From Cetorhinus maximus (lineage: Eukaryota): a stretch of DNA of 64,000 nucleotides. Below the pieces are notes generated by a model that saw nothing but the letters and a program-made list of their open reading frames with translations, was not told the DNA's origin and did no database searches. A program made the translations under genes and the position numbers. Shown here in pieces: positions 2,561-58,316 of this stretch; positions within the stretch are counted from its first letter, which is position 1; each line of letters begins with the position of its first letter. The stretch lies in contig NC_135887.1 of assembly GCF_964194155.1 (NCBI RefSeq), positions 24,056,001 through 24,120,000 on the forward strand. Direction: 5' to 3'.

Positions 2561-5500
2561 ACTAGGGGTGGGAAAGGGGTTGCTGCTATTTAATAGTGAA
2601 GTCGCTGACTCTGACTGGAATAATTAGAAATAGGAGGAGGCCATTCAGTGAGACCATGGTTGGTCAGTATCATAATTCCATTAAGATAAAAGCAAAATAC
2701 TGCAGATGCTGGAAATCTGAAACAAAAATAGCTGGAAAAACTCAGCAGGCCTGACATGACCAAAGGACCAAAACGCAGACTGGGTGACCGCTTTGCGGAA
2801 CACCTTCGGTCTGTCCGCAAGCATGACCCAGACCTCCCTGTCGCTTGCCATTTCAACACTCCACCCTGCTCTCATGCCCACATGTCCGTTCTTGGCCTGT
2901 CGCATTGTTCCAGTGAAGCTCAACGCAAACTGGAGGAACAGCACCTCATCTTCCGACTAGGCACTTTACAGCCTTCCGGACTGAATATTGAGTTCAACAA
3001 CTTCAGATCATGAACTCTCTCCTCCATCCCCACCCCCTTTCCAATCCCCCTTTTTCCAGTAATTTATAATTTTTTCAAAATATATTTTTCTTTTCCCACC
3101 TGTTTTTAAATTTATTTTGATCTATTGTTTTATTGCCACCTTTTAGCCCATTTCGATCCCTTCCCCCCACCCCATCCCCACTAGAGCCATCTGCCACTAA
3201 CTTGTCCTGCTTGCTACCCTTAATTTCCCCATTAGCACATTCCTTAGATAATATCACCACCATCAACAACACCCCTTTGTCCATTTGTCTATGACATCTT
3301 TCGCAATCTCTTCTTTGCCTTCACCTATCACTGGCCCCCACCCCCCTCAACCAGCTTATATTTCACCTCATTTCTCTATTTCCTTAGTTCAGATGAAGAG
3401 TCATACGGACTCGAAACGTCAACTGTATTCCTCTCTGCAGATGCTGTCAGGCCTGCTGAGTTTTTCCAGCTATTTTTTTTGTTTCATAATTCCATTACCT
3501 TGGCTCCATATCCCGGGGTGACCAACTGGAGGGTGAGGGGGGGGGGGCGGAAGGCTGGCATACCTGTCCATGCTCAAGGGGCTGAATGGCCTACTCCTCC
3601 TGATCAGTGCAAACCCGCATTTGTGAGCTGTGCGTGAATGAAATTTAAATATGTGAAAGACAGCATCCACGTATGGTACAACATGGGACAATAATGTTGA
3701 TTATGGGATGAACCTGTAAAACCTGTGACATTTGCTCACCCTGCCATATCCATTAATGCTCTTGACTAGTAAAGGTTTAGTCACCTTGAATATAAAATGA
3801 TTAATTGGACCCCAGAATCTACTGTATTGCCTTTTGTGGGAGAGAGTTTCAGCACTACCAGCCCTTGTATTAAGAAGTGTTTCCTAACTTCCCTCCTGAA
3901 TAGCTGGACTCAGATTTTAAGGTTATGCCCTGCCCCTTGCTCTAGACTCCCTCACATCCCAGATGAAAAATGTTTCTATCTATCTACCCTATCAATTCCT
4001 TTTAAAATCTTCAATCAAAATTGCCCCTTTAACATTTTATATTCCAGGAAATACAAATTATATAATCTAATCCTTATTCACTGGTTCCATTGCCCTGCCA
4101 TGCTCACTGATTAAACATCACCTCCCGTCCCCCTGTCCCCCATCCAGTGGCAGTTCTTTATGTGTGAGCCCTGCCACTAACATATTTGATCCTGGAAGGC
4201 ATCAGAACTGAGACTGACCTGATCTTCAGCTGATACACATGCACTCACACTGGCTGTCAGACCCTCAACACCACCAGAAGTTACAGGAGAGGGGACCTCC
4301 TGGCTGATTTCCTCTCCTCTAACCAGGCACTTTCAGACTAATTTGAGGTCTAGAGCTCAGGCTGAGGCTGGACATTCCTGCTCAGTTTGAGCACTGGAGT
4401 GATTTGGGTTGTCCACCACCCGCCCCCCCCCACCCCAGTCCAAGGGTAGGAATCATCGTTCTCCATCTGCTGGAACCCCATGTTGGGCTACATTGGTCAC
4501 AAAGCAAGGCGACAAAGTGGAACTTTCCGAATGCGTTCGTGGAGGAGGTGTGATCATCTCTTTAATGTTGGACTTTGCTTTGAAGTCTCGTGCCACAATT
4601 AAATTGCTTACCCATAATACACTGCCCTGCTGAGCTTCCTGAGTGCAAATTGACTGCTACACCACTGGCTACACTTCCAATGTATTTCATTGGCTGCAAA
4701 ATGCTTCAGGCTGTGAAAGTGCTACAGAAATGCAAGATTTTTCTTTATACATTCAAATAACTGAATTGGTTTGAAGTTAAATGGGATGGGCTGTTCCAAA
4801 CCTCCACCCCACTCTCCACAACTTGCAGCTGGTTTGACATCGAGCCTGATGCCAGCCTGTGGGCAAGCGGCTGCAACTGGGTAGGGTTTGACAGCTGCGA
4901 TTCCCTTTATTCACTGGCACGAGTTACGGCTCCACTAACAAGTATCCCCCTGCATTCCTGTTTAAATAATGAGAAAATAAACTTTCCTTTTCTTTTCTCC
5001 CCTTCTCTGGACTCAAGAGGAACAGTCGAAGCTGCGATTTCAGATGGAGCTGGAGTTTGTTCAGTGTCTGGCGAACCCAAACTACCTGAACTGTAAGTGT
5101 GTGCAGGAGCATTCTGGGAAATTGACAAGCTGCTGTTTGACACAATAATAGTGCAATTACCGGGCGCCATCCAATTACAGACAGGAATTGATCTCCTTTG
5201 TGCCGATCGGTAATACTGTCACACAGAGAGTGCCCATAATCAAATAACCAGACAAACCAGTAAAATACTGCAGATGCTGGAAATCTGAAACAAACAGAAA
5301 ATGCTGGAAAAACTCAGCAGGTCTAACAGCATCTGTGGAGAAAGAAACAGAGTTAACGTTTCGAGTCCGTATGACTCTTCTTCAGAGCTTAGACCAGTAA
5401 TACTGTCACACGGAGAGTGTCCATGATCAAACAATCAGATATCGGGCCTTGGGTGAGGAGGGGATTTGCAGAAGGAACTGAGCAATATGATGTTACCTAC

Positions 5501-6951
5501 TGCAAGCGCTTGATTTTGGTTAGAAGATTGAGGCTCAGCTTTACTAGTAGACGCACACGAGGAGAGTAACATTCCCAACTCCCTCAGGTGAAGTAACATC
5601 ACTGACAGTGAAACCGCCCCTCTCGGTTAGGTGTGCTGCTCTCTGGTTAAGAGTCCTCACTCTAACGATTGCTACCTGGAAAGAATTGGCAGGGGTGATA
5701 ACCCAATTCTTCATTTTCTTTTTGCAATACGGCAGTCCTAGCACAGCGAGGGTACTTCAGAGACCGAACATTTGTCAATTACTTCAAATATCTGCTGTAC
5801 TGGAAGGAGCCGGAGTATGCCAAGTACCTGAAGTAAGTGCCTGTACTCCGAGCAGGGCGTGCTCATCTGGGTGGGAGGATCGGTGTGGTTTTCCACTGTC
5901 ACAGGATCATTATCTAGGATACCCCCTACTGCCTAACCCCCATATTCTCCATTCCTCTTGATGTCATTCGTCCTTTGTTGGGGCAAGAAGCACTCATTGC
6001 CTTGCTCAGTTATTCATCTCCACTTGTCACTGTGAGGTTCAGAAGGGATAGGAGAAAAAGGAAGCTATTCAGCGCCTTGTGTCTATTCCACTTTTCAGTT
6101 AAATCATGGCTGCCCTTCAGCAGAGCTAGATATGGAGTAAAGCTCCCTCTACACTGTCCCCATCAAACACTCCCAGGACAGGTACAGCACGGGGTTAGAT
6201 ACGGAGGAAAGCTCCCTCTACACTGTCCCCATCAAACACTCCCAGGACAGGTACAGCACAGGGTTAGATACAGAGTAAAGCTCCCTCTACACTGTCCCCA
6301 TCAAACACTCCCAGGACAGGTACAGCACGGGGTTAGATACAGAGTAAAGCTCCCTCTATATAGTCTTCATCAAACACTCCCAGGACAGGTACAGCACGGG
6401 GTTAGATACAGAGTAAAGCTCCCTCTACACCGTCCTCATCAAACACTTCCAGGACAGGTACAGCACAGGGTTAAATACAGAGTAAAGCTCCTTTTCACCT
6501 ACAAAATTTGCTCCCATTTCTTAATGCTCCTCTGCTCCCTCCCATCTCTCTGTCTCTCCCTGTTTACAGGTATCCCTAATGCTTTCATAAGCACTCTGTC
6601 CCTCTCCCACTCTCCTGCAAGTTTCCCCAAACCATCCACAAGTTCCCTCCCCCTTCCCTGCTCTGTGCCCCACTCTTCCCCCTCACCTGTGCCCACACCC
6701 TGCACTCTTCCAGGATACCTCTCTGTGTCCTCTGTCTCTCACTCTCTCTCTGCCACAGGTACCCCCAGTGCCTCCACATGTTGGAGCTGCTGCAGTACGA
6801 GCATTTCCGCAAGGAGTTGGTCAACGCACAGTGCGCCAAGTTCATCGATGAGCAGCAGCTACTGCACTGGCAACATTATTCAAGGAAACGGGTGAGGCTG
6901 CAGCAAGCATTGGCTGAACAGCAACAGCAGAACAACACGTCCAGCAAATGA
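2423..6951 (+). CDS. MED31: Mediator of RNA polymerase II transcription subunit 31, complete gene: join(2423..2453,5018..5092,5736..5832,6759..6951), 131 aa
   Basis: Spliced translation [131 protein letters not shown]; all introns GT-AG and phase-consistent (31+75+97+193=396 nt). Confidence 0.97.
2684..3483 (+). mobile_element. Penelope-like element, 5'-truncated, with inverted 5' pseudo-LTR piece (MED31 intron 1)
   Basis: GIY-YIG tail [17 protein letters not shown]...VACHFN...[10 protein letters not shown]; 2684-2757 is an inverted copy of the 3' end; 14-bp TSD tcataattccatta (2670-2683 and 3484-3497). Confidence 0.9.
3386..3424 (+). ncRNA. Hammerhead motif in PLE pseudo-LTR with one core substitution (CAGAUGA)
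   Basis: AGUU-CAGAUGA-A-GAGUC-auacg-GACUC-GAAA-CGUC-AACU; perfect stem I AGUU/AACU and GUC triplet. Confidence 0.6.
5018..5092 (+). CDS. MED31: MED31 exon 2
   Basis: Long polypyrimidine tract, aag| acceptor, [25 protein letters not shown], donor gtaagt. Confidence 0.95.
5263..5392 (-). mobile_element. Solo PLE pseudo-LTR fragment in MED31 intron 2
   Basis: Matches the 3' ends of the PLEs at 2684 and 53949; flanked by accagtaa duplication. Confidence 0.8.
5351..5389 (-). ncRNA. Minimal type-I hammerhead ribozyme motif with intact core
   Basis: AGCU-CUGAAGA-A-GAGUC-auacg-GACUC-GAAA-CGUU-AACU: CUGANGA and GAAA boxes, 5-bp stem II, palindromic ACGU stem III, GUU cleavage triplet; PLE pseudo-LTRs are known to carry such motifs. 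Confidence 0.75.
5736..5832 (+). CDS. MED31: MED31 exon 3
   Basis: cag| [33 protein letters not shown] |gtaagt. Confidence 0.96.
6127..6492. repeat. 69-bp minisatellite, about 5 units (MED31 intron 3)
   Basis: Unit AAAGCTCCCTCTACACTGTCCCCATCAAACACTCCCAGGACAGGTACAGCACGGGGTTAGATACAGAGT. Confidence 0.95.
6759..6951 (+). CDS. MED31: MED31 exon 4 (terminal coding exon)
   Basis: cag| [63 protein letters not shown], stop TGA 6949-6951. Confidence 0.96.
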
Positions 6952-19500: not shown

Positions 19501-22500
19501 GCAGATTCAATAATAACTTTCAAAAGGGAATTGGATAAATACTGGAAAAGAAAACATTTGCAGGCTTATCGGGTAAGAGCAGGCAGGAATTGGAACTAAT
19601 TGGATAGCTCTTTCAATGAACCAGCACAGGCATACTGGGCTGAATGGCCTCCTGTGTTATGTGATTCTATGAAATCAGACACATCATCAATCTGAGGTTG
19701 CTTAGTTTTATCTGTAAGGGCAAAGTCCCAAAATAGTCCAGATTGCACTCGATTGAACTGGTCATGAACGTGGTCAGTTCAGCCACACTATCGACTTCTC
19801 TGTTTACCCCTGGGTTTCTAGATTCCTGACAGAGGAAAGTTATAAAAGGTGCTTACCTCACAGCCCTTAGCCAATGCAAAACCTCCTCCCACCAATAACA
19901 CCACATTCCAGGGCATCTTATGTTGGACGGTATTCCAGTCGAGGAGTTTCTTCATCTGCTTCTTGCCTGGCCAGCATTTTAGAAAGAAACAATCTCAATG
20001 TCATTTTCTTCCTACCCAATCATTTCTGCACAGCAATTGGCTAGAATGCATTGACATAGGATCGGGAAATGTGTGGACCAGATAGAGTCCTTTCACCTCA
20101 ACAATGTGGGTTCAAATGCAGCCCAGGGATGTCAACCAGAACCTATTGGCTGTGGAAGTGTGAAGTTAATTTGTGCAGTTATAGTCGAGCCCCTAAAGGG
20201 CCATGGCACAGAACTGCCTGTAATTCCAACTCAGAATGGCCACCCACACTGGCATTGTAGCAGCTGGTACTCTAAGATTGTGATAGAGATGCCTTGTTGG
20301 GGACAGTGTAGAAGGAGCTTTACTCTGTATCTGACCCCGTGCTGTACCTGTCCTGGGAGTGTTTGATGGGGACAGTGTAGAGGGAGCTTTACTCTGTATC
20401 TATCACTGTGCTGTACCTGTCCTGGGAGTGTTTGATAGGAACAGAGTAGAGGGAGCTTTACTCTGTATCTAACCCCATGCTGTACCTGTCCTGGGAGTGT
20501 TTGATGGGGACAGCGTAGAGGGAGCCTTACTCTGTATCTAACCCTGTGCTGTACCTGTCCTGGGAGTGTTTGATGGGGACAGTGTAGAGGGAGCTTTACT
20601 CTGTATCTAACCCCGTGCTGTACCTGCCCTGGGAGTGTTTGATGGGCACAGTGTAGAGGGAGATTTACTCTGTATCTAACCCCGTGCTGTACCTGTCCTG
20701 GGAGTGTTTGATGGGGACAGCGTAGAGTGAGCTTTACTCTGTATCTAACCCCGTGCTGTACCTGTCCTGGGAGTGTTTGATGGGGACAGCGTAGAGTGAG
20801 CTTTACTCTGTATCTAACCCCGTGCTGTACCTGCCCTGGGAGTGTTTGATGGGGACAGCGTAGAGTGAGCTTTACTCTGTATCTAACCCCGTGCTGTACC
20901 TGCCCTGGGAGTGTTTGATGGGGACAGTGTAGAGGGAGCTTTACTCTGTATCTAACCCCGTGCTGTACCTGCCCTGGGAGTGTTTGATGGGGACAGCGTA
21001 GAGTGAGCTTTACTCTGTATCTAACCTCGTGCTGTACCTGTCCTGTTCTCTTTCGAGCTCTCCAGGACCCGATTCCAGGGTTTAAAGTTTGGCTTCTGCG
21101 ATGGAATTATGAACATGAGGAAGGCGATGAAGAGTGCGACAGTGGCATCAGAGACATATCTGAAATGAGGAAGAATTGGTTAGGGTCAAGTGTTAGCCTA
21201 GAACAGACACTCTCCCCAACCCCAGCACTGTCATACTGCACTAGATTTAAAAAGAACATGGGAACAGGAGGAGGCCGTTCAGTCCCTTGAGCTTGTTCTA
21301 ACATTCACTAAGATCATGGCTAATCTGTGATCTAACCCCATATTCCTTACTATCTCTGGTTTACAAACATCTATTAATCTTGGATTTAACTTTAGATTAA
21401 TTAGATCAATTGCCATTCTCGAAAGAGTTTTCCATGGTGAGGATGGAGGGAGAGTGAAAGGTGGAGCGATAGTGGAGGGCGTATGGTGGGAGGGTGGAGA
21501 GAGGGTGGTGGATGGAGGAAGGGTGGAGGATGGAGGCAGGACGGAGGGTGGGTGCAGGTTGGAGGGAGGGTGGAGGGAAGGTGTTTGGAGGGAGGATGGA
21601 GAACGGAGGGAGGGTAGAGTGGAGAGAGGGTCGAGGGAGGTTGGATCATGTGTGGAGGATGGAGGGAGGGTGGAGGATGGAGGGAGGGAAGAGGAGGATG
21701 AAGGGAAGGTGGAGGATGGGATGTGGAGGGAATGTGGCGGATGGAGGGAGGGTGTGGAGTAGAGGGAGGAGGGGATGGAGGGTGGTGGAGTATGGAGATG
21801 GGTGCAGGGAGGGTGGAGGGTAGAGGTGGATAGAGGGAGGGTGGAGGTTGTAGGGAGGATGAAGGAGGATCAAGAGAAGGGGAATATTAAACCCCACCTG
21901 CAAGAGAAAGATCTACTCTGACATTGTCCTCCTCCAAAAAAGAATTTATACCAACAAGAACCCCAAGCCCAAGATGGGGAGAGATTCAGAATTTTTTATT
22001 AATTCACGGGATGTGGGCTTCGCTGGTTGGGCCAGCATTTATTGCCCATCCCTAATTGGCCTTGAGAAGGTGGTGGTGAGCTGCCTTCTTGAACCACTGC
22101 AGTCCCTTTGGTGTAGGTACACCCACAGTGCTGTTCGGGAGGGAGCTCCAGGATTTTGACCCAGCGACAGTGAAGGAACAGTGGCATGTTTCTAAGTTTT
22201 GCTCATGTGTTTATGAGTTCCCCCAGCATAGGACCAGGTAGTTTATCCTGCATTGTATCCATGTTACACCTGACTGCAGGATGCTCGATGTTGGCACTCT
22301 ATCTTGGCATTCGATGGGCCCTCTCAACCCACTCCGAGAACAAATGCAGAGAACTGATGGTAACCTTAGGCAACGGATTTGTTCCAGCTTTATTCTCTAA
22401 ATATGTTCTTGGCTGAATTTCCAATTGAACAATGAGCTGTGTGTTCCCCAGAAACTCCTCTGAAGCTGCTACAACTCTGAGTTCTCGAGTCTCTCCAATG

Positions 22501-25500
22501 GGCTCTGTACATTTCCAGGTTTCCAAATCTCCTGGTTTGTGCAGGAGCTGAATTATTGCCCTTTAAAGGCTCCTCTCTGATTATGGGTTCTGTACAGTCT
22601 GCTCAATTTGGAGACTGCCCCCCTCCCCCATCTAGGCCGTGTTCACAGGCTGGTGAGGGTTACAACCTAAGACTACTTGGATCAAGATTTAACATCTTCC
22701 TGTCCCCAACCTCCCTCCTCCCAATGCAACCACAAACTGCCATACATTCCTGTTGCTGTCCAACTCCATTTCTAGAATCCAGGCTAACTATTCGGCATCT
22801 TGTTCTGCCGATTTTAATCAGTCTACCATTGCCGGCCGTCCCTTCAGCTGCCTGGGCCCTAAGCTCTGGAATTCCCTCTCTAAACCTCTTCATCTCTCTC
22901 ACCCACTTAGAAATGTGTCTCAAAACCTACCTCTTGGGTGCCCTCCTCCAATAGAATGTTTTTCAGATAGTTTTTTAGAACAGTATGTTTTGGCACCAGC
23001 CAGTGAGTAGGCTATACTAGACCTGGTATTGACCAACGAGATAGTATTATTAACTGCTCATCTATTTTAATATCTCCTATGTGACCTTGCTATCCGGTGC
23101 AGACACAATGGGCCGAGTGGCCTCCTGCACCCTAACAGTTCTGTGATTCTGTCAAATTTGTTGGATAGCATTCCTGTGAAGCCCCTTGAGATGTTTTACG
23201 ATGTTTAATGCAATTATATCCTTTTTCAAAAAAGGAAACCAAAGCTGTGCACAGTACTCCAGATGTGGGGTGCGGTTTTCCGGCCCTGCCTGCTGCCGGG
23301 ATGGTCCAGACGCACCGAAAGTCAATGGACTTTGGGCCGCTGAATCTCCCACAGCAGGTTCTGCCACAACGGGCTGGAAATTCCCGGCCATGGTCTCACC
23401 AAGGCCCTGTACAGCTGCAGTAAAACTTTCCTACTTGTATATTCCATTCGTCTTGCAATAAATGCCAACGTTCCATTTGCCTTCCTAATCACATGTACCT
23501 GCATACTAACTTTTTGTGATTTGTGTACTAGGACACCCAGATCCCTCTGTACCTCAGAGTTCTGTAATCTCTCTCCATTTAAATAGTATAGAGCTTTTCA
23601 ATTCTTCCTGCCAAACCGCACAAGTTCACATTTTCCCAGTTTATACTCCAACTGTAAATTTGTGCCCGCTACTTAACCTGCCTAAGTCCCTTTGTAAATT
23701 CTTTACCTCCTTTGTACAACTTACTTTCCTATCTATGTTGGTGTCATCGATGTTATTCAGTACTGAGGGAATGCCGCATTGTCGGCGGGTCAGCAATGAG
23801 AGCATGCCGCACTGTCAGTACTGAGGGAGTGCTGCACTGTTGCAGGGTTAGTACTGAGGGAGTGCCGCACTGTCAGTATTGAGGGAGTGCTGCACTGTTG
23901 CAGGGTAAGTACTAAGGGAGTGCTGCACTGTCGGAGGGCCAGTACTGAGGGAGTGCTGCACTGTCGGAGGGCCAGTACTGAGGGAGTGCTGCACTGTCGG
24001 AGGGTCAGTACTGAGGGAGTGCTGCACTGTCGGAGGGTCAGTACTGAGGGAGTGCTGCACTGTCGGAGGGTCAGTACTGAGGGAGTGCTGCACAGTCAGA
24101 GGGTCAGGACTGAGGGAGTGCTGCACTGTCAGAGGGTCAGTACTGAGGGAGTGCTGCACAGTCAGTACTGAGGGAGTGCTGCACTGTCAGAGGGTCAGTA
24201 CTGAGGGAATGCTGCCCTGTCAGAGGGTCAGGACTGAGGGAGTGCTGCCCTGTCAGAGGGTCAGGACTGAGGGAATGCTGCCCTGTCAGAGGGTCAGGAC
24301 TGAGGGAGTGCTGCCCTGTCAGAGGGTCAGGACTGAGGGAGTGCTGCCCTGTCAGAGGGTCAGTACTGAGGGAGTGCCGCACTGTCAGAGGGTCAGGACT
24401 GAGGGAGTGCTGCACTGTCAGAGGGTCAGGACTGAGGGAGTGCTGCACTGTCGGAGGGTCAGTACTGAGGGAGTGCTGCACAGTCAGAGGGTCAGTACTG
24501 AGGGAGTGCTGCCATCTTTTGAATAATAAGTTAAACCAAATCTCCTGTCTACGTTCTTAACCGGAAGTAAAAGATCCCATGGCCACTATCGGAAGGAGAG
24601 CAGGGGGAGTTCCCCCCGTTGTCTTGGGCCAATATTTATTCCTGAACAGCCCACATTAAACCACATTGTCTGGGTCCTTATCATGTTTCTGATTGTGGGA
24701 TCTTGCCGTACAGAAATAGGCTGCCCTGTTTCCTACATTAAAATTGTGATTACACTTCCTAAGCGGGTGAAAGGCGCTATGTAAATGCAAGTCTTTGCTA
24801 AAAGCAGAGTGGATGTGTGGCTGCCCTGGCTCACTTTACAATCCAGCCTCGGGTTGTGTTACCCTGTCTTCAGTACTCACTCCTGGCCATTTTTGTCGAA
24901 GAGGACATTTCCCCAGCCTGGGACAAACCCGGGATCCCGGGTGAACCACAGCACCACTAACAAGATGAAGAGGACGAGGACAGCTTTCTCTGCAAAGCTC
25001 ATGCGGCCGAGCTTCTTGTACTCCTCTTGGATGACACCATAAGCTTTCTTCTCCTTCGACGAGACCGGAATTCCGAATCCCCACAACCTCCGAAAACTGT
25101 TAGCAAGACAAGGTCACTTTAGAAGCATTTTATCAGCTCTATCCCATTGAGATATCATTAGCATCTAAATGTGGATGGGGAAGGATTGAGGCCTCTGCAT
25201 GGGGCACAGTGTTGGACAGCAACGGACCTCAGCCCCAGACCCTAAGTATACTACATGGAGAATTATCACCTTCAACATTTGGACAGCAATCTGGTGGAAC
25301 TGATCTCTTCTCTCTTATACAGCTCTCTGCAGTACTAGATCCCCGTCTATTCGCAATTCCCCAATCCCGATCTCTGCAGGGACTCGGAGAGACTTGCAAT
25401 CAGAGGACTCTGTGTGGAGGAGAAAATCAGAGCTGAAGAGGCCAAAGGTTTCCTTGAGGATTCTCAGAGAAGTTTCCCACAGTTCTTATGGAGGCTGAAA

Positions 25501-28500
25501 TAGAGTCAACTTGTGGAGCCACCTGCTCCTGCCTTCCTTTAACTCCCAGCACAGGGTTAGACACAGAGTAAAGCTCCCTCTACACTGTCCCCATCAAACA
25601 CGCCCAGGACTGGTACAGCTCGGGATTAGATAGAGAGTAAAGGTCCCTCTACACTGTCACCATCAAACTCTCCCAGGGCAGGTACAGCATGGGGTTAGAT
25701 AGAGAGTAAAACTCCCTCTACACTGTCCCCATCAAACACTCCCAGGACAGGTACAGCACGGGGTTAGATACAGAGTAAAACTCCCTCTACACTGTCCCCA
25801 TCAAACACTCCCAGGACAGGTACAGCACAGGGGTTAGATACAGAGTAAAGCTCCCTCTATACTGCCCCCATCACACACTCCCAGGACAGGTACAGCACAG
25901 GATTAGAAACAAAATAAAGCTCCCTCTACAATGTCCCCATCAAACACTCCGAGGACAGGTACAGCACGGGGTTAGAGACAGAGTAAAGCTCCCTCTATAC
26001 TGCCCCCATCATACACTCCAAGGACAGGTACAGCACAGGATTAGATACAGAGTAAAGCCCCCTCCAAACTGCCCCCATCAAACACTCCCAGGACAGGTAC
26101 AGCTCGGGATTAGATACAGAGTAAAGGTCCCTCTACAATGTCCCCATCAAACACCCCCAGGACAGGTACAACACGGAGTTAGATACAGAGTAAAACTCCC
26201 TCTACACTGTCCCCATCAAACACTCCCAGGACAGGTACAACACGGAGTTAGATACAGAGTAAAGCTCCCTCTACACCGTCCCCATCAAACACCCCCAGAA
26301 CAGATACAGCACAGGGTTAGATACAATGTAAAGCTCCCACTACACTGTCCCCATCAAACACTCCCAGGACAGGTACAGCACGGGGTTAGATACAGAGTAA
26401 AGCTCCCTCTACACTGTCCCCATGAAACACTCCCAGGACAGGTACAGCACGGAGTTAGATACAGAGTAAAGCTCCCTCTACACTGTTCCCATCAAACACT
26501 CCCAGGACACGGGGTTAGATGTAATGTTTACTTCTGGATTGTGCCCACACTGGGAATCTGGACTCTGATCTCCTGAACTTATTTGTGTGTTTTGTATATT
26601 TTAGAGTTTTTCACCCCCCTCACTGTTATGGGACCTAATAATTCTTTGTAAGAACCAGGCAAAGATTGAATACAGAGAAAAGGGAATTTTTTAAAATTCA
26701 TGATTTATTGCTGATATATATTGTTAAACTCTGGCTTTCTATACACTGTAATATGGCTTTCTTTATCCATATGCTGTTCCTCTTTTATAATCCAATGCCT
26801 GAATTACGTGTCGATGAGTTATGTGTTAATAACTTGGAATCAGCAGCAGTCCTTCAGAGATAAAGCATATCATTGGGTGAAGTGATCTGCAAGTTGGCAT
26901 TGCCAATCTATACATCTATACAATCTACTCTATACAATCTGTTGGGAATAGCTGCATTAGCCAGAAATCAGGGGCTTGATAATGATACCTTCCCATCAAC
27001 CAGGGCAGTTTGTAATTAGATTATTAAACATTTTTAATGTTTAACTTTATCCAACAGTTTCTCTGTAGCATTAAGAGTGCAAAAAGTTAGAAACAGGGCA
27101 CAGTGCAGAATGATGGCAAGGTAAAGGGGTTCTGGGAGTTTATGTCAAGTTTTAAAAGCTTACTGCAGCTAAAAGAAACTCTTGAAGCTGCTTGCGTCAG
27201 CTCAAACAGAGAGGGAGGCGTTTGTTTACGATAAGGAGCAACAGGATGAGACAGCCCTAAAATAAGAGGAAATAGAACAGCCATGAACAAGCAGAACATT
27301 ACGTGATGCACATTGCTCACTTAACTATGACTGGACACAGGGATGGGTTAATTGGGTAAGAGTTCGACTAGAAGAGACCCTCCCAAATAAGGCCACATGG
27401 TGGAGAAAACTAGAAACCAGAAAACAAGAGACAAGAAGGGAGAGAGAAAAAGAAAAACAGAGAAGAGCTCAAAGATCAAAAAAGTGCAAGAAGCGAAGGT
27501 CATTGTCCATATCCCACCCAGTCTTTATATGGGGAGTATTTAGCTGACATTAGACGGTAAATCACTACCTGAGTTTATTGCTATAAATTACCAGGAATCG
27601 GAATAATCTTGTTCTGACTTTATCTCATTAAAGGAGCCTGAAGACTGAACTTTGTGGCCAGTCTGTTCCCATAACAACAGGGCCTCAAACCCCACCCCCA
27701 TAATCAACAGTCGGCATTGTTAATTTCAGCAACAGTTTCATGGCCTCCCATTGGATGGTCTTTATTGAAATCCCAGGGAAATGGTAAATACTGCTTGTTA
27801 AGACTGTTTCTACAGGATTTCTAGCCATGGTACATTGGGGGATTTGGGGAAGCCCAATAGAACATCATCCCAGCATCTTTGCACCAGAGATGGGAGATCA
27901 ACATCAGGCTGGCCTTTGATGGTCTTCTTGTTCTGAAAATGGTGGGAATGAATGTGGATCATGTATGAAGGAACATTATTCTTGACTCTGGAGGCACCAG
28001 CGATTGGTGCCGCTGGCATGGGCCACCTTCATACCATTGTATACCTAACTCTACATGTAACCTTCTTCTTCCCTACAACCCACAGAGATTTCAGCACTCC
28101 TCTAATTCTGGCCTCTTGCACATCCCCCAATTATAATCAGTGCACCATGGCTTCCACTCCGCCATGCATTCAGCCCTAAGCTCAGGAATTTCTGTACTAA
28201 ACCTCTCTGCCTCTCTCTCTCTCCTCCTTTAAGATGACCCTTAAAGCCTGTGTCTTTGACCAAGCCTTTGTTCTAATTTCTTGCCTGATATGACTGTACC
28301 AGATTATGTTTGATAATCGCTCCTGTGAAGTATCTTGGGATGTTTTCCAATATTGAAGGCGCTATATAAATGCAAGATGTTGTTGCAACTGAGGTATATT
28401 TTCATTTACTCATACAGTTCCATAACTCTGATTTTAAACAACCGATTATATTGTGTTGACTGTCCCTCAGGGCCACAGGTACAGACACACAGCAGCATTA

Positions 28501-34500: not shown

Positions 34501-37500
34501 CCACCCCAGCCTTTCTTAGGATGAGGTCTCAGAAGCCGGAACCAGCTAAATCCTTACTTCCCTAATTTTTGTTGCAGCAGAAACATTGGTCAGACACAGG
34601 AAGAATCGTTAACATTCACCAGAGCAGAAAGACAGGGCTTCGGTTTAAAGCCACATCTAAAAGGCAACACCTCAGTACTGACCCTCCAACAGTGCAGCGC
34701 TCCCTCAGTACTGACCCTCCAACAGTGCAGCGCTCCCTCAGTACAGACCCACCAACAGTGCGGCACTCCTTCAGTACTAACCCTGCAACAGTGCAGCACT
34801 CCCTCAGTACAGACCCTCCGACAGTGCAGCACTCCTTCAGTACTGACCCTGCAACAGTGCAGCACTCCCTCAGTACAGACCCTCCGACAGTGCAGTACTC
34901 CCTCAGTACAGACCCTCCGACAGTGTAGCGCTCCCTCAGTACTGACCCTCCGACAGTGCGGCGCTCCCTTGGTGTTGACCCTCCGACAGTGCAGCACTGC
35001 CTCAGTACTGACCCTCTGACAGTGCGGCAGTCCCTCAGTACTGACCCTCCAACAGTGCAGCACTCCCTCAGTACTGACCCTCTGACAGGGCAGCAGTCCC
35101 TCAGTACTGACCCTCCGACAGTGCAGCACTCCCTCAGTTACTGACCTTCCCACAGTGAGGCACTTGCTCAGTACGCACCTTCTGACAGTGCAGTGCTCCC
35201 TCTGTACCGGCTCTCCAACAGTGCAGCACTGCCTCAGTACCGACCCTCTGACAGTGCGGCAGTCCCTCAGTACTGACCCTCCAACAGTGCAGCACTCCCT
35301 CAGTGCTGACCCTCCAGCAGTGCGGCACTCCCTCAGTACTGACCCTCCGACAGTGCGGCACTCCTTCAGTACTGACCCTCCGACAGTTCGGCACTCCTTC
35401 AGTACTGACCCTTCGACAGTGCAGCACTGCCTCAGTATCGACCCTCTGACAATGCGGCGCTCCCTCACTACTGCACTGGTTGTGTGAGCCTGAATTGTAC
35501 GTTCAAGTTTCTAGAGTTGTGCTTGAACTGATTTTGGCTCAGAGATTGGGAACTCCTCACTGAGCCACAACATTTATTCAGGAATTTCATTTTAAAAGGA
35601 ATAAGATGAGGTTGGGACTGATACAATCGAGGGAACAGTTTAGTAAATAACAGCACATTCCACACAGCTTTTGAGAGGAATTGTTTTGATAGTGTAAAAT
35701 GATGCACTCACTGGTTGATTTGCCCCTGCAGAACCAGGTTGGCGGGGGTGCCAGTCAGAGTTGCAGTGCCACCGATACTGGCTGCGTAGCAGATGCACAG
35801 AGTCAGACCTTTATACATGTTCATCTGCTCATGTTCGTCCTTGTGTTCTATCATCATTGTGGAAACATTCACGCTCTTCACCTGAACATTTGTCTCTTCA
35901 CCTGGAGAAGCCAAACCTGCAGGGTACACAGAACAAAAAATGTCACAATCACTACCTCACCCCCAGTGGGGCAGACTCTTGTATTAAGCATGCTTTGGGG
36001 CCAATGGTGCAATAGCACTAATGGCAAGTGGGAGACATTTTTATAGCCGGGGCTCATAAGATCCCTAACAGCACTATGGGTGCACTTACGCCACATGGAC
36101 TGAAGCGGTTCAAGAAGCCAGCTCACCACCACCTTCTCAAGGGCAATTAGGGATGGGCAATAAATGCTGAACCAGCCAGCGAAGCCCACATCCCATGAAC
36201 GAATTTTTAAAAAATCATAAGAAAGATCAACCCAGAAGTATGAGGTGACATCCCCAGAAGGGGAGGTCAAACAAGGTAAACCTGTCTAACTTAGCTTTGA
36301 GTATACTGACAAAGCCTCCACTGCTCTCTGCGGTAGAGAATTTCAAAGATTCACAACCCCCTGAGAGAAGAAATTCTTCATCTCTGTCTTAAATGGGAGA
36401 CCTCTTATAACTGTGCCCCCAGTTCAAGATTCCCCAACGAGAGGAATCATCCTCTCAGCAGCTGTCCTGTCAAGTCCCCTCAGAATCTTATCTGTTTCAA
36501 TAAAATCACCTCTCATTCTTCTAAACTCCAATGGGTATAGGCCCAACCTGTCCAAAGTGTCCTTGACAAACCCCTTCATCCCATAATCAGCCTGGTGAAC
36601 TTTCTCTCAACTGCTTCCAATTCAAGTTTCTCCTTAAGGAAGGAGACGAAAGCTGAACCAAGGTCCTGAACAGATGTAGCAAGACTTCCTCACATTTATT
36701 CTCCATCCCCCTGGCTGTAAAAGGCCAACATTCCATTTGCTTCCCTAATTTCCTGCTGTACCTGCATGTTACCTTCTTGTGATTCATGATCAGGGACACC
36801 CAGGTGCCTCTGCAGTCTCTCTCCACTTAAATAATATTCTGCTTTTCTCATGTGTGTGATGCTGATGCACAACTAATACTGAACCAGTGGTTAGTGCGTC
36901 CAGTGCTCACTCTGTGAGGCAGAAGTGGATGTTCAAGGTTAAATAGGGAAAATAATGGGGGTGATGAATATTTGATTCATGAGATTATTACACAGCACGC
37001 TTTCTCCATCCAGACTCTGTGCCCTGACGGTGCTGATTATTGCTACACATGTAAAGAATGATTGGGGTAGACAGTGAAAAGAAGTAAGTTCAGCTGGACA
37101 GGGGGAAGAATAGCCCAGGGGCAACTGTCGACCATGGAACCCCTGCCACAATCTGCAATATCACAAGAGTTAGAACCACATCTCTCTGGCTCAGTAACAC
37201 CCTGGACACTGACCAGCTGTCCACACCACCCTCCCTCCCTCCCAACCCCCTCACAGGGGTTTGAATCCCCTGGGGCTGCTTAGACTTCCACTGTGAATGG
37301 CCTCCTTCTGTGTTATAATGACTCTGAAACACGCATGGCCTGGGGAGTGGGAGTAAAGTGAGAAATCGTATGAAAGACACCTCATTGAGAGGGTTAATGT
37401 GTTAGAGACCTGTCAACTCCATGTCAGGAATGGTGATCTTTGACTCCACTTCCATTTCATGAGCAGAAGAATGGGAATTTTCCAATTCCACCCTTGATGC

Positions 37501-40500
37501 ATCCTCTTCAGTGCTGCTGAGCTGGTCGAGCACGGCCTTTGCGATGGGGACCATCATTGCAGTGGTGGCTGTGTTACTGATCCACATTGAGAGGAATGCT
37601 GTCACGCCCATGAACCCCAACATTAACCTGGAAAGGATAGAAACAAGCCAGTTAGCGACGTGAAAATAGCTTCCAGCCCATCAAAGCCCCCACCTCTCGC
37701 TAATATCCCATTGAAGTCCCTCCCTCAGGACGTTAACCCATCGAAGACCCTCCCTCTGGACATTAACCCATCGAAGCCCCTCCCTCGGGACATTAACCCA
37801 TCGAAGCCCTCCCTCAGGACATTAACCCATCGAAGCCCCTCCCTCGGGACATTAACTCTGCGATGAAGTTCATCTCTAATGCAGATGTGGGGAACAGCCT
37901 TGACCACATGTGGGTGATGGAATATCTTGCGCTCTGGGCTCTAAGTGGGGACCACAAGCAGACTGGAGGCAATATTGCTTCAAGCTTTCCTGATGCTGAA
38001 GCTTATCTCTCCTTCTCTTACTATCCACGCACCATCCCCCCCCCCCCACCCCCCCGCCAATGGACATTGAATATTCTACATTTACAGGACCTGACATTGT
38101 CCTGAAATAAATTGCATAGGGAACTACTTCCTGTCCTTTTATCCTGCTCTCTAATTCTATGCATTAACGTTCACTGTGTGCTTGATGCCATCTGTAACAC
38201 AACTGGACAAAGGATAGGAGAAGTCTTACAGAGCTGGCTTGACACCCACAAAGAAGAGCGTTGTCAGTGCGATGCGTTTGTGAAGATTCCAGTCCTCAAT
38301 GGCTATAGCAACCATTAACCCACCAAGGAAGAAGGCACTGGTGTCTTTCAGGTACTCCATACACACCTGAAACAGAAAGCACTCAGATGCACAACATCAC
38401 AGTGAGGTCATGTGGGTGTGTCAAGCATCCTGAGGCAAGGACCAGTCTGCATTGCCAAAAACTAGACTGGGATGGGTTATGATCATTGAGCTCCATTCAC
38501 ACTGGGGCCAGTGGGCTATGGTCAGTGATCCCCATTCACACTGGGGCCCATAGGTTATGGTCAGTGATCTCCATTCACACTGGGAACAGTGGGCTACGGT
38601 CAGTGATCCCATTCACACTGGGAACAGTGGGTTGTGGTCAGTGATCCCCATTCACACTGGGAACAGTGGTTATGGTTAGTGATCTCCAATCACACTGGGA
38701 ACAGTGGGCTCTGTGCCTCTAGCTAGTGAATGGTATTAGAAGGTTGGCATCGAACAGTGCCCTAGAGAAACCCTGCTGATTGGTTGTAAACCTTTTTTTG
38801 GCAGTTTGGGAAAGGTATCAGCTCATTGAGATAACATGGTCAATCCCATGTTTTATTAAAGGTTACTGGTTGATTCATCGAGATAACCTGGTCAATCCCA
38901 TGTTTTATGATAGGTTACTGAGGATTAACTAACCAATTGCCAGCCAGAACAGACACTTTATCATCAAATGTTCAAGGGAAGGATGATGATTATATCGAGA
39001 CTCAATGTTACAATCTTGTTTCTCTTTAAAGTTTCATTATCAAGTTCACAGAAGTGATTTCGGGGACAACAGTGTTGTTTCTGAAACTTACTGTTTTGGA
39101 CGGCATGATTCCAAACGTTGGGAAAAGTAAAATGGGCAGGAAGGATGTGATAGCCAGGGGGATGACTTCAGTGCACCAATACACAGCCATCAGAAGGACA
39201 ATATATCCGCAATAGGCTTCCTGTTGGAGAGGGAAACAAAAATTAGATCAGCAGGAAACCCTTAGTAGTGACAACAACTTATATTTATATAGCACTTTTA
39301 ATGTAATGAACTGTCCAAGGTGCTTCACAGGAACATTCCCAAACAGAAGTTGACACCAAATCACATGAGATGTTAGGAGAGGTGGGCAGAAGCTTTGTCA
39401 AAGAACTTTAAGGAACTTCTCAAGGGAGGAGAGACAGGTAGAGGGAGGAGAGATTTAGGGAGGGAATTCCAGAGCTTAGGGACCAGGCAGCTGAAGGCAC
39501 GGCCACCAATGGGGGCAATAGAAATTGGAGATGCTCAAGAGGCCGGGATTAGTGGAGCACAGAGATCTCAGTGGGCTGTAGGGCGGAGGTGATTACAGAG
39601 AGAGGGAGGGACTTGAAAACAAGGATGAAAATTTTAAAATCAAGGCATTGCCAAACAAGGAGCCAATAAAGGTCAGTAGGCACAGGGGTGACAGGGTAAC
39701 AGGACTTGCTGGGAGTTAAGACAGGGACAGCAGAGTTTTCAGTGAGTTCAAGTGTATGGAGGGTGGAATGTGGGAGTCCGGACAGGAGACTGATGGGAAA
39801 GTTGAGGAAACAGAAGTCAAGTTGCAATGAGTACACTCACTGCAAGAACCAACCTTTGTTGTAGACAAGTCCCTCCACCCCACAAAAATAAATTGCCCGT
39901 TGCCCCCACCCCTCCTCTCCTAGAAGTGGAACAGGCCAATCAGTGCCAGGCAGCCAATTGGGTCATTGGCAGTGCCCAGTGACTTGGTGGTTGTGACACT
40001 GGGCGAGCAGTTCAGAGGCTGCAAATTGAAATCCCATTGGCTAAGTGATGCATTAAATGGGAGGGAGTTTTAATCCCAAGAATAAAAATCTGATCATAGA
40101 AACTGACAGATTGTTGAACAGACCCAAAGGGGTTACTAGCGTCCTGTAAGGAAGGAGAGTAATGAGCCCCTGGTGTCACCCTACGTGTGACCCCAATCTC
40201 ACACTGCCTTGACTCTTGATGCCCTCAGGGACAACTAGTGATGGACAGTAAATGCTGCCTTGATAGGGCCACCCACATCCGAGAACACAGAAGAGAATGA
40301 CACTCTCTCTGTATATAGACAGCAGAGATACCAGGTTATTGAGGATAATCTGTGCAGATCAACAAGAGCATAGAAATGACTGGACAATGGGAGCACAGAC
40401 CATCTAAACCTGCCTCTAGTCTGCTGGTACAAAGATAATAGAGTAATTGACCAATCAGAGTGACCAATCTCTATCAATGAGTCTACAGCAGAGCCGGACA

Positions 40501-57157: not shown

Positions 57158-57463
57158 GGTGCTGTACCTGTCCTGGGAGTGTTTGATGGGGACAGTGTAA
57201 AGGGAGCTTTACTCTGTATCTAACCCCGTGCTGTACCTGTCCTGGGAGTACTTTGATGGTGACAGTGTAGAGAGAGCTTTACTCTGTATCTAACCCCGTG
57301 CTGTACCTGTCCTGGGAATGTTTGATGGGGACAGTGTAGAGGGAGCTTTACTCTGTATCTAACCCCCTGCTGTACCTGTCCTGGGAATGTTTGATGGGGA
57401 CAGTGTACGGGGTGCCTTATTCTGTATCGATCCCTGTGCTGTACCTGTCCTGGGAGTGTTTGA
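57158..57463. repeat. 69-bp minisatellite, about 4.5 units
   Basis: Same unit as the other arrays. Confidence 0.93.
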
Positions 57464-57987: not shown

Positions 57988-58316
57988 GGGACAGTGTGGA
58001 GGGAGATTTACTCTGTATTTAACCCCATGCTGTACCTGTACTGGGAGTGTTTGATGGGGACAGTGTAGAGGGAGCTTTACTCTGTGTCTAACCCCGGGCT
58101 GTACCTGTCCTGGGAGTGTTTGATGGGGACAGTGTAGAGGGAGCTTTACTCTGTATCTAAACCCATGCAGTACTCCTTCATCACTGGCCCTCAAATAGTG
58201 CAGCACACCCTCAGTACTGACCCTCTGACAGTGCAGCACGCCCTCAGTATGCCCTGCCAACAGGGCAGCACTCCCTCAGTACTGACCCTCCGACAGTGCA
58301 GCACTCCCTCAGTACT
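57988..58316. repeat. Composite array: about 2.5 units of the 69-bp repeat joined to about 4.5 units of the 33-bp repeat
   Basis: Direct junction near 58165. Confidence 0.88.

Follow-up and report, generated by a model that had tools for sequence, protein, structure and literature searches.

A dispersed 69-bp minisatellite at the exon 8 splice donor of an SLC13A5-like gene in Cetorhinus maximus

In a 64,000-nucleotide stretch of the Cetorhinus maximus genome (hereafter, the window), exon 8 of an SLC13A5-like gene ends inside a tandem array whose units carry one and the same splice donor motif, repeated behind the exon at regular intervals. This arrangement raises the questions of which donor is used, what the repeat is, whether the present donor took the place of an older one and whether the number of copies bears on the output of the gene.

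The exon 8 donor and its use in relatives

The gene (gene A) was assigned to the Na+/citrate cotransporter family as SLC13A5-like on the basis of PF00939, NCBI names, a 12-exon model and the adjoining MED31 gene; certain NCBI isoforms carry an SLC13A2-like name. Exon boundaries were searched within ±15 nt, and the single 12-exon GT-AG solution was identical to XP_078404400.1 (Cetorhinus maximus, 596 aa) letter for letter. Coordinates of all features are provided in Table 1; in splice motifs, a slash marks the exon-intron boundary.

Table 1. Positions of the features described in the text, in window coordinates unless a genome or locus handle is given
Feature	Position	Strand	Basis or remark
SLC13A5-like gene A	41311-13383	minus	12 exons; 1 of 2 tandem paralogs
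Exon 8, coding, 122 nt, phase 1 at end	21159-21038	minus	gene model; transcript-like contigs of relatives matching 21037-21159
Exon 9, coding, 110 nt, phase-1 acceptor, poor pyrimidine tract	19966-19857	minus	gene model
69-bp minisatellite, 10.9 units, 94% match	20294-21045	minus	TRF
Last 8 nt of exon 8, identical to repeat unit; encode end of N-R-T and first base of G	21045-21038	minus	TRF; sequence comparison
Used donor CAG/GTACAG, GT at 21037-21036	21040-21032	minus	transcript-like contigs; exon model
Ten further donor 9-mers in array	last exonic bases 20969 to 20348	minus	motif positions
Second phase-1 donor GAG/GTTAGA, last exonic base 21026, in frame	21028-21020	minus	motif; frame check
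In-frame TAG, included by any more distal donor	21023-21021	minus	frame check
Same-family array in MED31 intron, 5.3 units, 5 sense donors (6179-6455)	6127-6491	plus	TRF; motif
Further 69-bp arrays	25547-26509; 57159-57463; 57988-58173; plus L005, L012		TRF
Decayed old tRNA-headed SINE-like copy, antisense to gene; start approximate	20050-20293	plus	motif; profiles; 3' part runs into array
Paralog B, inverted, 12 exons, facing gene A	G000:C9:23967029-24031384		similarity search

Eleven CAG/GTACAG sites were located on the minus strand, with last exonic bases at 21038, 20969, 20900 and onward to 20348 in steps of 69 nt. The original prediction had described this count and spacing and had held that the repeat supplies the donor of exon 8; both statements were confirmed, the latter by the overlap of the array with the exon end and by transcript-like contigs of relatives that exit there (see below). 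It had put about 7 exonic nucleotides in the repeat, which was right as to the overlap and wrong as to its length (8 nt), and its donor coordinates followed a mixed convention, 21038 being a last exonic base and 20968 and 20899 first intronic bases. Its view that the other copies would all take in the stop codon also held: all ten would include 21023-21021, and the three that were modelled (20969, 20900 and 20348) each ended the protein at 422 aa (full length, 596 aa). Mistaken was the claim that 21038 is the only phase-1 GT ahead of the TAG, given that the GAG/GTTAGA site at 21026 is in phase 1 as well.

Donor 21026, which lies 12 nt downstream of 21038 and before the stop, would give an open frame of 600 aa (4 aa longer). 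Based upon U1 duplex energy it is weaker than 21038 (-5.7 vs -7.2 kcal/mol), and the A at its position -2 was unique to unit 1 among the 11 units compared. By the same crude measure, donor 21038 ranked fourth among the 11 donors of gene A and is therefore of ordinary strength. The only phase-0 GT near the end of exon 8, at 21069, was the weakest site tested (-4.9, U1 duplex). At the other end of the intron, the exon 9 acceptor (19949-19966) is weak, and four more AGs in phase 0 stand behind it.

MED31 is encoded on the plus strand (exons at approximately 5032-5103, 5735-5833 and 6757-6879), and its array occupies the intron between the last two of these exons. The original prediction had located five sense copies there correctly and had offered them as an internal control; lying roughly 345 nt deep in the intron, away from any exon end, they are a weak control.

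Four public runs, all from relatives and none from Cetorhinus maximus, were aligned to positions 20980-21440, a region containing one unit. Three of these, from three studies of related species B and C, were taken as RNA by the tool's guess. In each, a single unbranched contig (3019, 1909 and 1977 nt, respectively) matched 21037-21159 in its middle, differed from exon 8 of the window at two sites, both third codon positions, and included the 8 repeat-identical bases. Since 21037 is a G common to the intron and to exon 9, the contigs exit the genome at donor 21038; rare isoforms are dropped from such assembled contigs. The NCBI models of Cetorhinus and Carcharodon, which are predictions, splice ENRT-G to exon 9. 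The fourth run (species B; kind not on record, with contigs that cross the intron) yielded a contig that passes from 21440 through exon 8 to 21018, which is 28 letters into the repeat. Because this is short of the 31-letter bridging rule, it was counted as support for the exon-array junction and not as proof of it. The use of donor 21038, within the repeat, is supported.

A paralog with a single unit

A search with the intron flank returned a second copy approximately 35 kb before the window, within a complete, inverted 12-exon paralog (paralog B). Exon 8 of paralog B terminates at CAG/GTATGT (L007:1673). It is followed, 10 nt further on, by a single 62-nt unit with the same end point as the array in the window. 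When A and B were aligned, a 17-nt gap was found in A between the exon and the unit. The two donors of paralog B, its own at 1673 and that of the unit at 1690, are 17 nt apart and have U1 duplex energies of -10.2 and -7.2 kcal/mol, respectively. The same state was recovered from related species B, in which a DNA contig with B-type exon differences carried an excess of 14 letters (the 17, reduced by a codon difference of 3 nt) and crossed 63 nt of the unit before ending. Both arrangements are present in the DNA of this species, the A-type contig reaching only 28 letters into the repeat.

The spacing of ESSKENRT-G in the window is shared by the A-type proteins of Mustelus (ESSKENLT-V) and Scyliorhinus (ESSKENGS-V), and the repeat donor therefore now stands at the ancestral exon end. 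That the last residue spans the junction in these two species was presumed from exon-9 starts common to the two paralogs of each. The duplication is an old one, since proteins of both types were found in Mustelus, Scyliorhinus and Hemiscyllium. Long stretches of A and B, introns included (around exons 1-4, 6, 7 and 9-12), are 92-98% identical, exon 8 is about 80% identical, and the proteins differ strongly at exons 3 and 5, a pattern of patchy gene conversion. The main caveat in using B as a proxy for the ancestor is such exchange of sequence between A and B, given that the order of events proposed below rests on B.

Two further features of paralog B were observed. Its intron 8 measures approximately 19 kb (G000:C9:24001750-24020620) vs 1.07 kb in A, and the extra DNA interrupts the SINE-like copy, separating the unit from the body. 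The end of its exon 8 (L007:1655-1673) resembles the S-K-E-N stretch retained in A-type proteins, altered by a short +2/-2 frameshift.

The repeat and its probable parent

An exact 39-mer of the unit was matched 28,276 times genome-wide (14,031 and 14,245 by strand), and its control was not matched at all; five arrays of the 69-bp family were detected in the window by TRF. A young SINE insertion was ruled out, in that the arrays have varied start and end registers and unrelated flanks, which argues for a dispersed minisatellite family. The flank of the exon-8 array had no match at the flanks of other arrays (59 arrays, some overlapping, enriched for pattern matches). The array in intron 6 is antisense to gene A; counterparts of it occur in paralog B, and part of that intron appears to be duplicated there.

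Directly beside the exon-8 array lies the decayed SINE-like copy of Table 1. Its head contains what we take, by eye, to be a B-box-like motif and a weaker A-box-like one; ARAGORN and Rfam gave no match. The B-box-like motif (20089-20117, plus strand) was found at 9 loci, and at 62 loci with a refined pattern plus one mismatch (controls, 0), and loci with the head motif have a common body behind it. As far as can be judged from its sequence, the putative parent is thus dispersed and has a tRNA-like head. The family may resemble LF-SINE.

In order to relate the unit to this family, profiles were built solely from the sequence behind the motif at other loci, using 8 and 32 loci. The flank together with the last unit was colinear with both profiles (29.1 bits with 8 loci and 32.8 bits with 32 loci; 0/200 shuffles). 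The flank alone matched the 32-locus profile, at 16.8 bits in A and 14.6 bits in B (0/200 shuffles each), and gave no match with the 8-locus profile. The unit alone matched the 8-locus profile at 7.6 bits (0/200 shuffles) and gave no match with the 32-locus profile. Individually, 6 of the 32 head-bearing loci were matched by the unit (2 at E<0.001) vs 0 of 32 controls, and five of these six matches lay on the same strand, at 267-387 nt from the start of the segment. Moderate support is thereby given to the view that an old SINE-like element with a tRNA head supplied the unit from its 3' part and that an antisense copy already resident in the intron probably grew into the array. The SINE origin given in the original prediction fares likewise: the intron flank belongs to an old tRNA-headed family and the unit is colinear with the 3' part of that family, although the unit alone is missed by the 32-locus profile.

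Other places at which an exact unit starts just before a donor were collected. There were 36, of which 30 were examined and 23 kept after array-internal sites and near-duplicates were dropped. These 23 places held 34 open frames, and 31 of them (3 simple-repeat frames were omitted) had no Pfam match, a result to be read beside that of the positive control, exon 8, which likewise had no match to its own family. At one place (L043:1391-1510), the array stands at the end of a frame that has a stop upstream and by eye resembles an immunoglobulin V-type exon in decay; this frame had no match in Pfam or in a protein search.

A literature search that was thin on subscription journals returned no publication on the 69-bp repeat, on the locus or on a shark SLC13A5 duplication. 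In the portion of a paper on shark SINEs that was available (PMC5499810), LF-SINE, tandem and minisatellite are not mentioned.

A second dispersed minisatellite, of 33 bp, occurs at 23814-24512, 34670-35473 and 58166-58316, in one case directly beside a 69-bp array. Presumably it resembles part of the shark Deu-domain SINEs; if that likeness is true, this genome holds two SINE-born minisatellites.

Probable donor replacement, its alternatives and comparable loci

The reading that we favor, at a probability of roughly 0.7, is neutral splice-site turnover followed by tandem expansion. An old SINE-like element would have lain antisense in intron 8, with its 3' part ending 9-10 nt from the exon's own donor, and would have carried a silent CAG/GTACAG 17 nt downstream of that donor, a state that is seen in the paralog and that we infer for the ancestor. 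A net loss of 17 nt in A, taken from the alignment, would then have removed the old donor, possibly via a slip between the two CAG/GTA sites, and brought the element's donor to the same exon position and phase, so that protein length would have been unchanged. A plain slip at CAG/GTA does not, however, explain why the match to the repeat extends 8 nt into the exon. Probably after this exchange, the unit would have expanded and been homogenised with the genome-wide 69-bp family, and the donor would have been copied 10 times. The spliceosome would take the first donor, as in human F7, and rare use of a distal one would lead to a premature stop and probably to decay; the array would have no needed function beyond holding the donor. 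The original prediction had proposed that the ancestral donor was replaced by the repeat or captured into it; replacement is supported by paralog B, in which the exon's own donor persists and a lone unit lies 10 nt downstream.

We consider capture, in place of replacement, unlikely. In that case the exon of A would already have ended in ACAG/GTA, and the repeat would have been copied in at this short match, so that it would account for no more than a few exonic bases and the donor's intronic side from +4 onward. Mustelus A has a Thr at this position (ENLT-V), which fits an old ACAG/GT, and the repeat-side boundary, which is identical in A and the paralog, could equally have come about by A-to-B conversion. 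Such a capture would nonetheless require sequence to have been transferred out of register into the paralog. Both paralog introns, moreover, contain the SINE head and body, with the bit scores and shuffle results given above, and the unit therefore looks resident and not newly landed.

The layout itself is already known from human F7, IFI6, CBS and ABCA7, and no new mechanism is revealed. In human F7, whose intron 7 contains a 37-bp VNTR, passages of Borensztajn et al. (2006; PMC1557585) state that only the first donor is used and that 1-12 repeats do not alter this choice; they also cite IFI6 (6-16), CBS, LMNB2 and PDGF as like cases. Three features of F7 are found again in the shark: the first unit lies across the exon-intron boundary (unit 1 holds 8 exonic nt and the donor), identical pseudo-donors follow in the intron (10 further CAG/GTACAG) and splicing mainly takes the most upstream donor (3 of 3 RNA-guessed runs of relatives, as contigs in which minor isoforms are invisible). 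The two differ in that the shark unit belongs to a genome-wide family and is not a mere copy of the gene's own junction, and in that the shark paralog keeps the donor state from before the change; the origin of the F7 unit is not treated in those passages. In human ABCA7, intron 18 carries a 25-bp VNTR of about 12 to 427 units. According to the sections consulted of De Roeck et al. (2018; PMC5954066), the following exon is skipped more often with longer VNTRs, whereas use of the second donor does not rise. There too, the canonical donor lies within the repeat and the next copy leads to a premature stop; the range of lengths and their effect are known for ABCA7, whereas the shark array is known from one assembly.

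It is quite unlikely that the array acts as a tuner, in which more copies would shift splicing to distal donors (and decay) or cause exon 9 to be skipped and thereby set transporter dose. All 11 donors do have one 9-mer in common, ABCA7 VNTR length correlates with next-exon skipping (PMC5954066, in part), two pseudo-sites are used in IFI6 and CBS (PMC1557585, in part) and exon-9-skipped forms, in which the exon-8 donor is joined to exon 10, occur among the NCBI predictions for two species, Cetorhinus and Carcharodon. Skipping of exon 7 or exon 10 likewise occurs among the NCBI forms, however, and the exon 9 acceptor is weak. Each RNA-guessed run gave a single unbranched contig over exon 8, retention of one unit in ABCA7 is about 2% and constant across lengths (PMC5954066, in part), and 1 to 12 repeats leave donor choice in F7 unaffected (PMC1557585, in part). 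Tuning of productive splicing by array length, as raised in the original prediction, was thus not supported. We hold as very doubtful the broader proposition that an abundant, SINE-born shark minisatellite with a ready donor would repeatedly supplant the donors of coding exons and that its copy number here would act as an inherited control over decay or the skipping of exon 9.

An error of assembly at the exon-array junction, or a true donor outside the repeat, is barely credible: the NCBI model of this species was built on the same assembly and the runs examined were all from relatives, but their transcript-like contigs hold the 8 repeat-identical bases and exit at 21037, a relative's DNA contig passes from the exon into the repeat (28 letters) and the only nearby phase-0 GT (21069) was the weakest tested.

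Turnover followed by expansion can also be set beside two retroposon systems. As in the SINE-derived satellites of squamates, for which a longer terminal unit is described in parts of Vassetzky et al. (2023; PMC10702118), a piece of a SINE would here have become a tandem repeat whose terminal unit is longer and continues into the SINE on one side; the SINE family and the clade are different, most of the shark arrays have no such flank, and those parts of the paper do not discuss a splice role. As in Alu exonization (PMC7786948, in part), splicing would here have come to use a donor that lay cryptic on a SINE's antisense strand, but no new exon arises in the shark, the donor of an existing constitutive exon being swapped in place.

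What is new at this locus is a before-and-after snapshot of donor replacement. It would be a natural record of a constitutive donor exchanged for a retroposon-derived one at constant exon length and phase; a neighbouring paralog preserves the earlier state, which is seen in two species. One of the commonest minisatellites of the genome is tentatively tied to a SINE-like parent, and the pair of genes offers a test case for first-donor selection outside mammals (1 vs 11 copies, strong vs weak first donor).

The paralogs also differ in coding sequence. In lamniform, carcharhiniform and orectolobiform A-type proteins, the conserved TLTGTGPN gives way to TLTGT(P/A/V)AN (exon 5, 35712-35916); those that cover the site also have DTS(A/V)FF in place of DTNxLF (exon 3, 38230-38366). 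B keeps both motifs. We take this loop to be part of the NaCT sodium and substrate site, and the specificity of A may therefore have changed.
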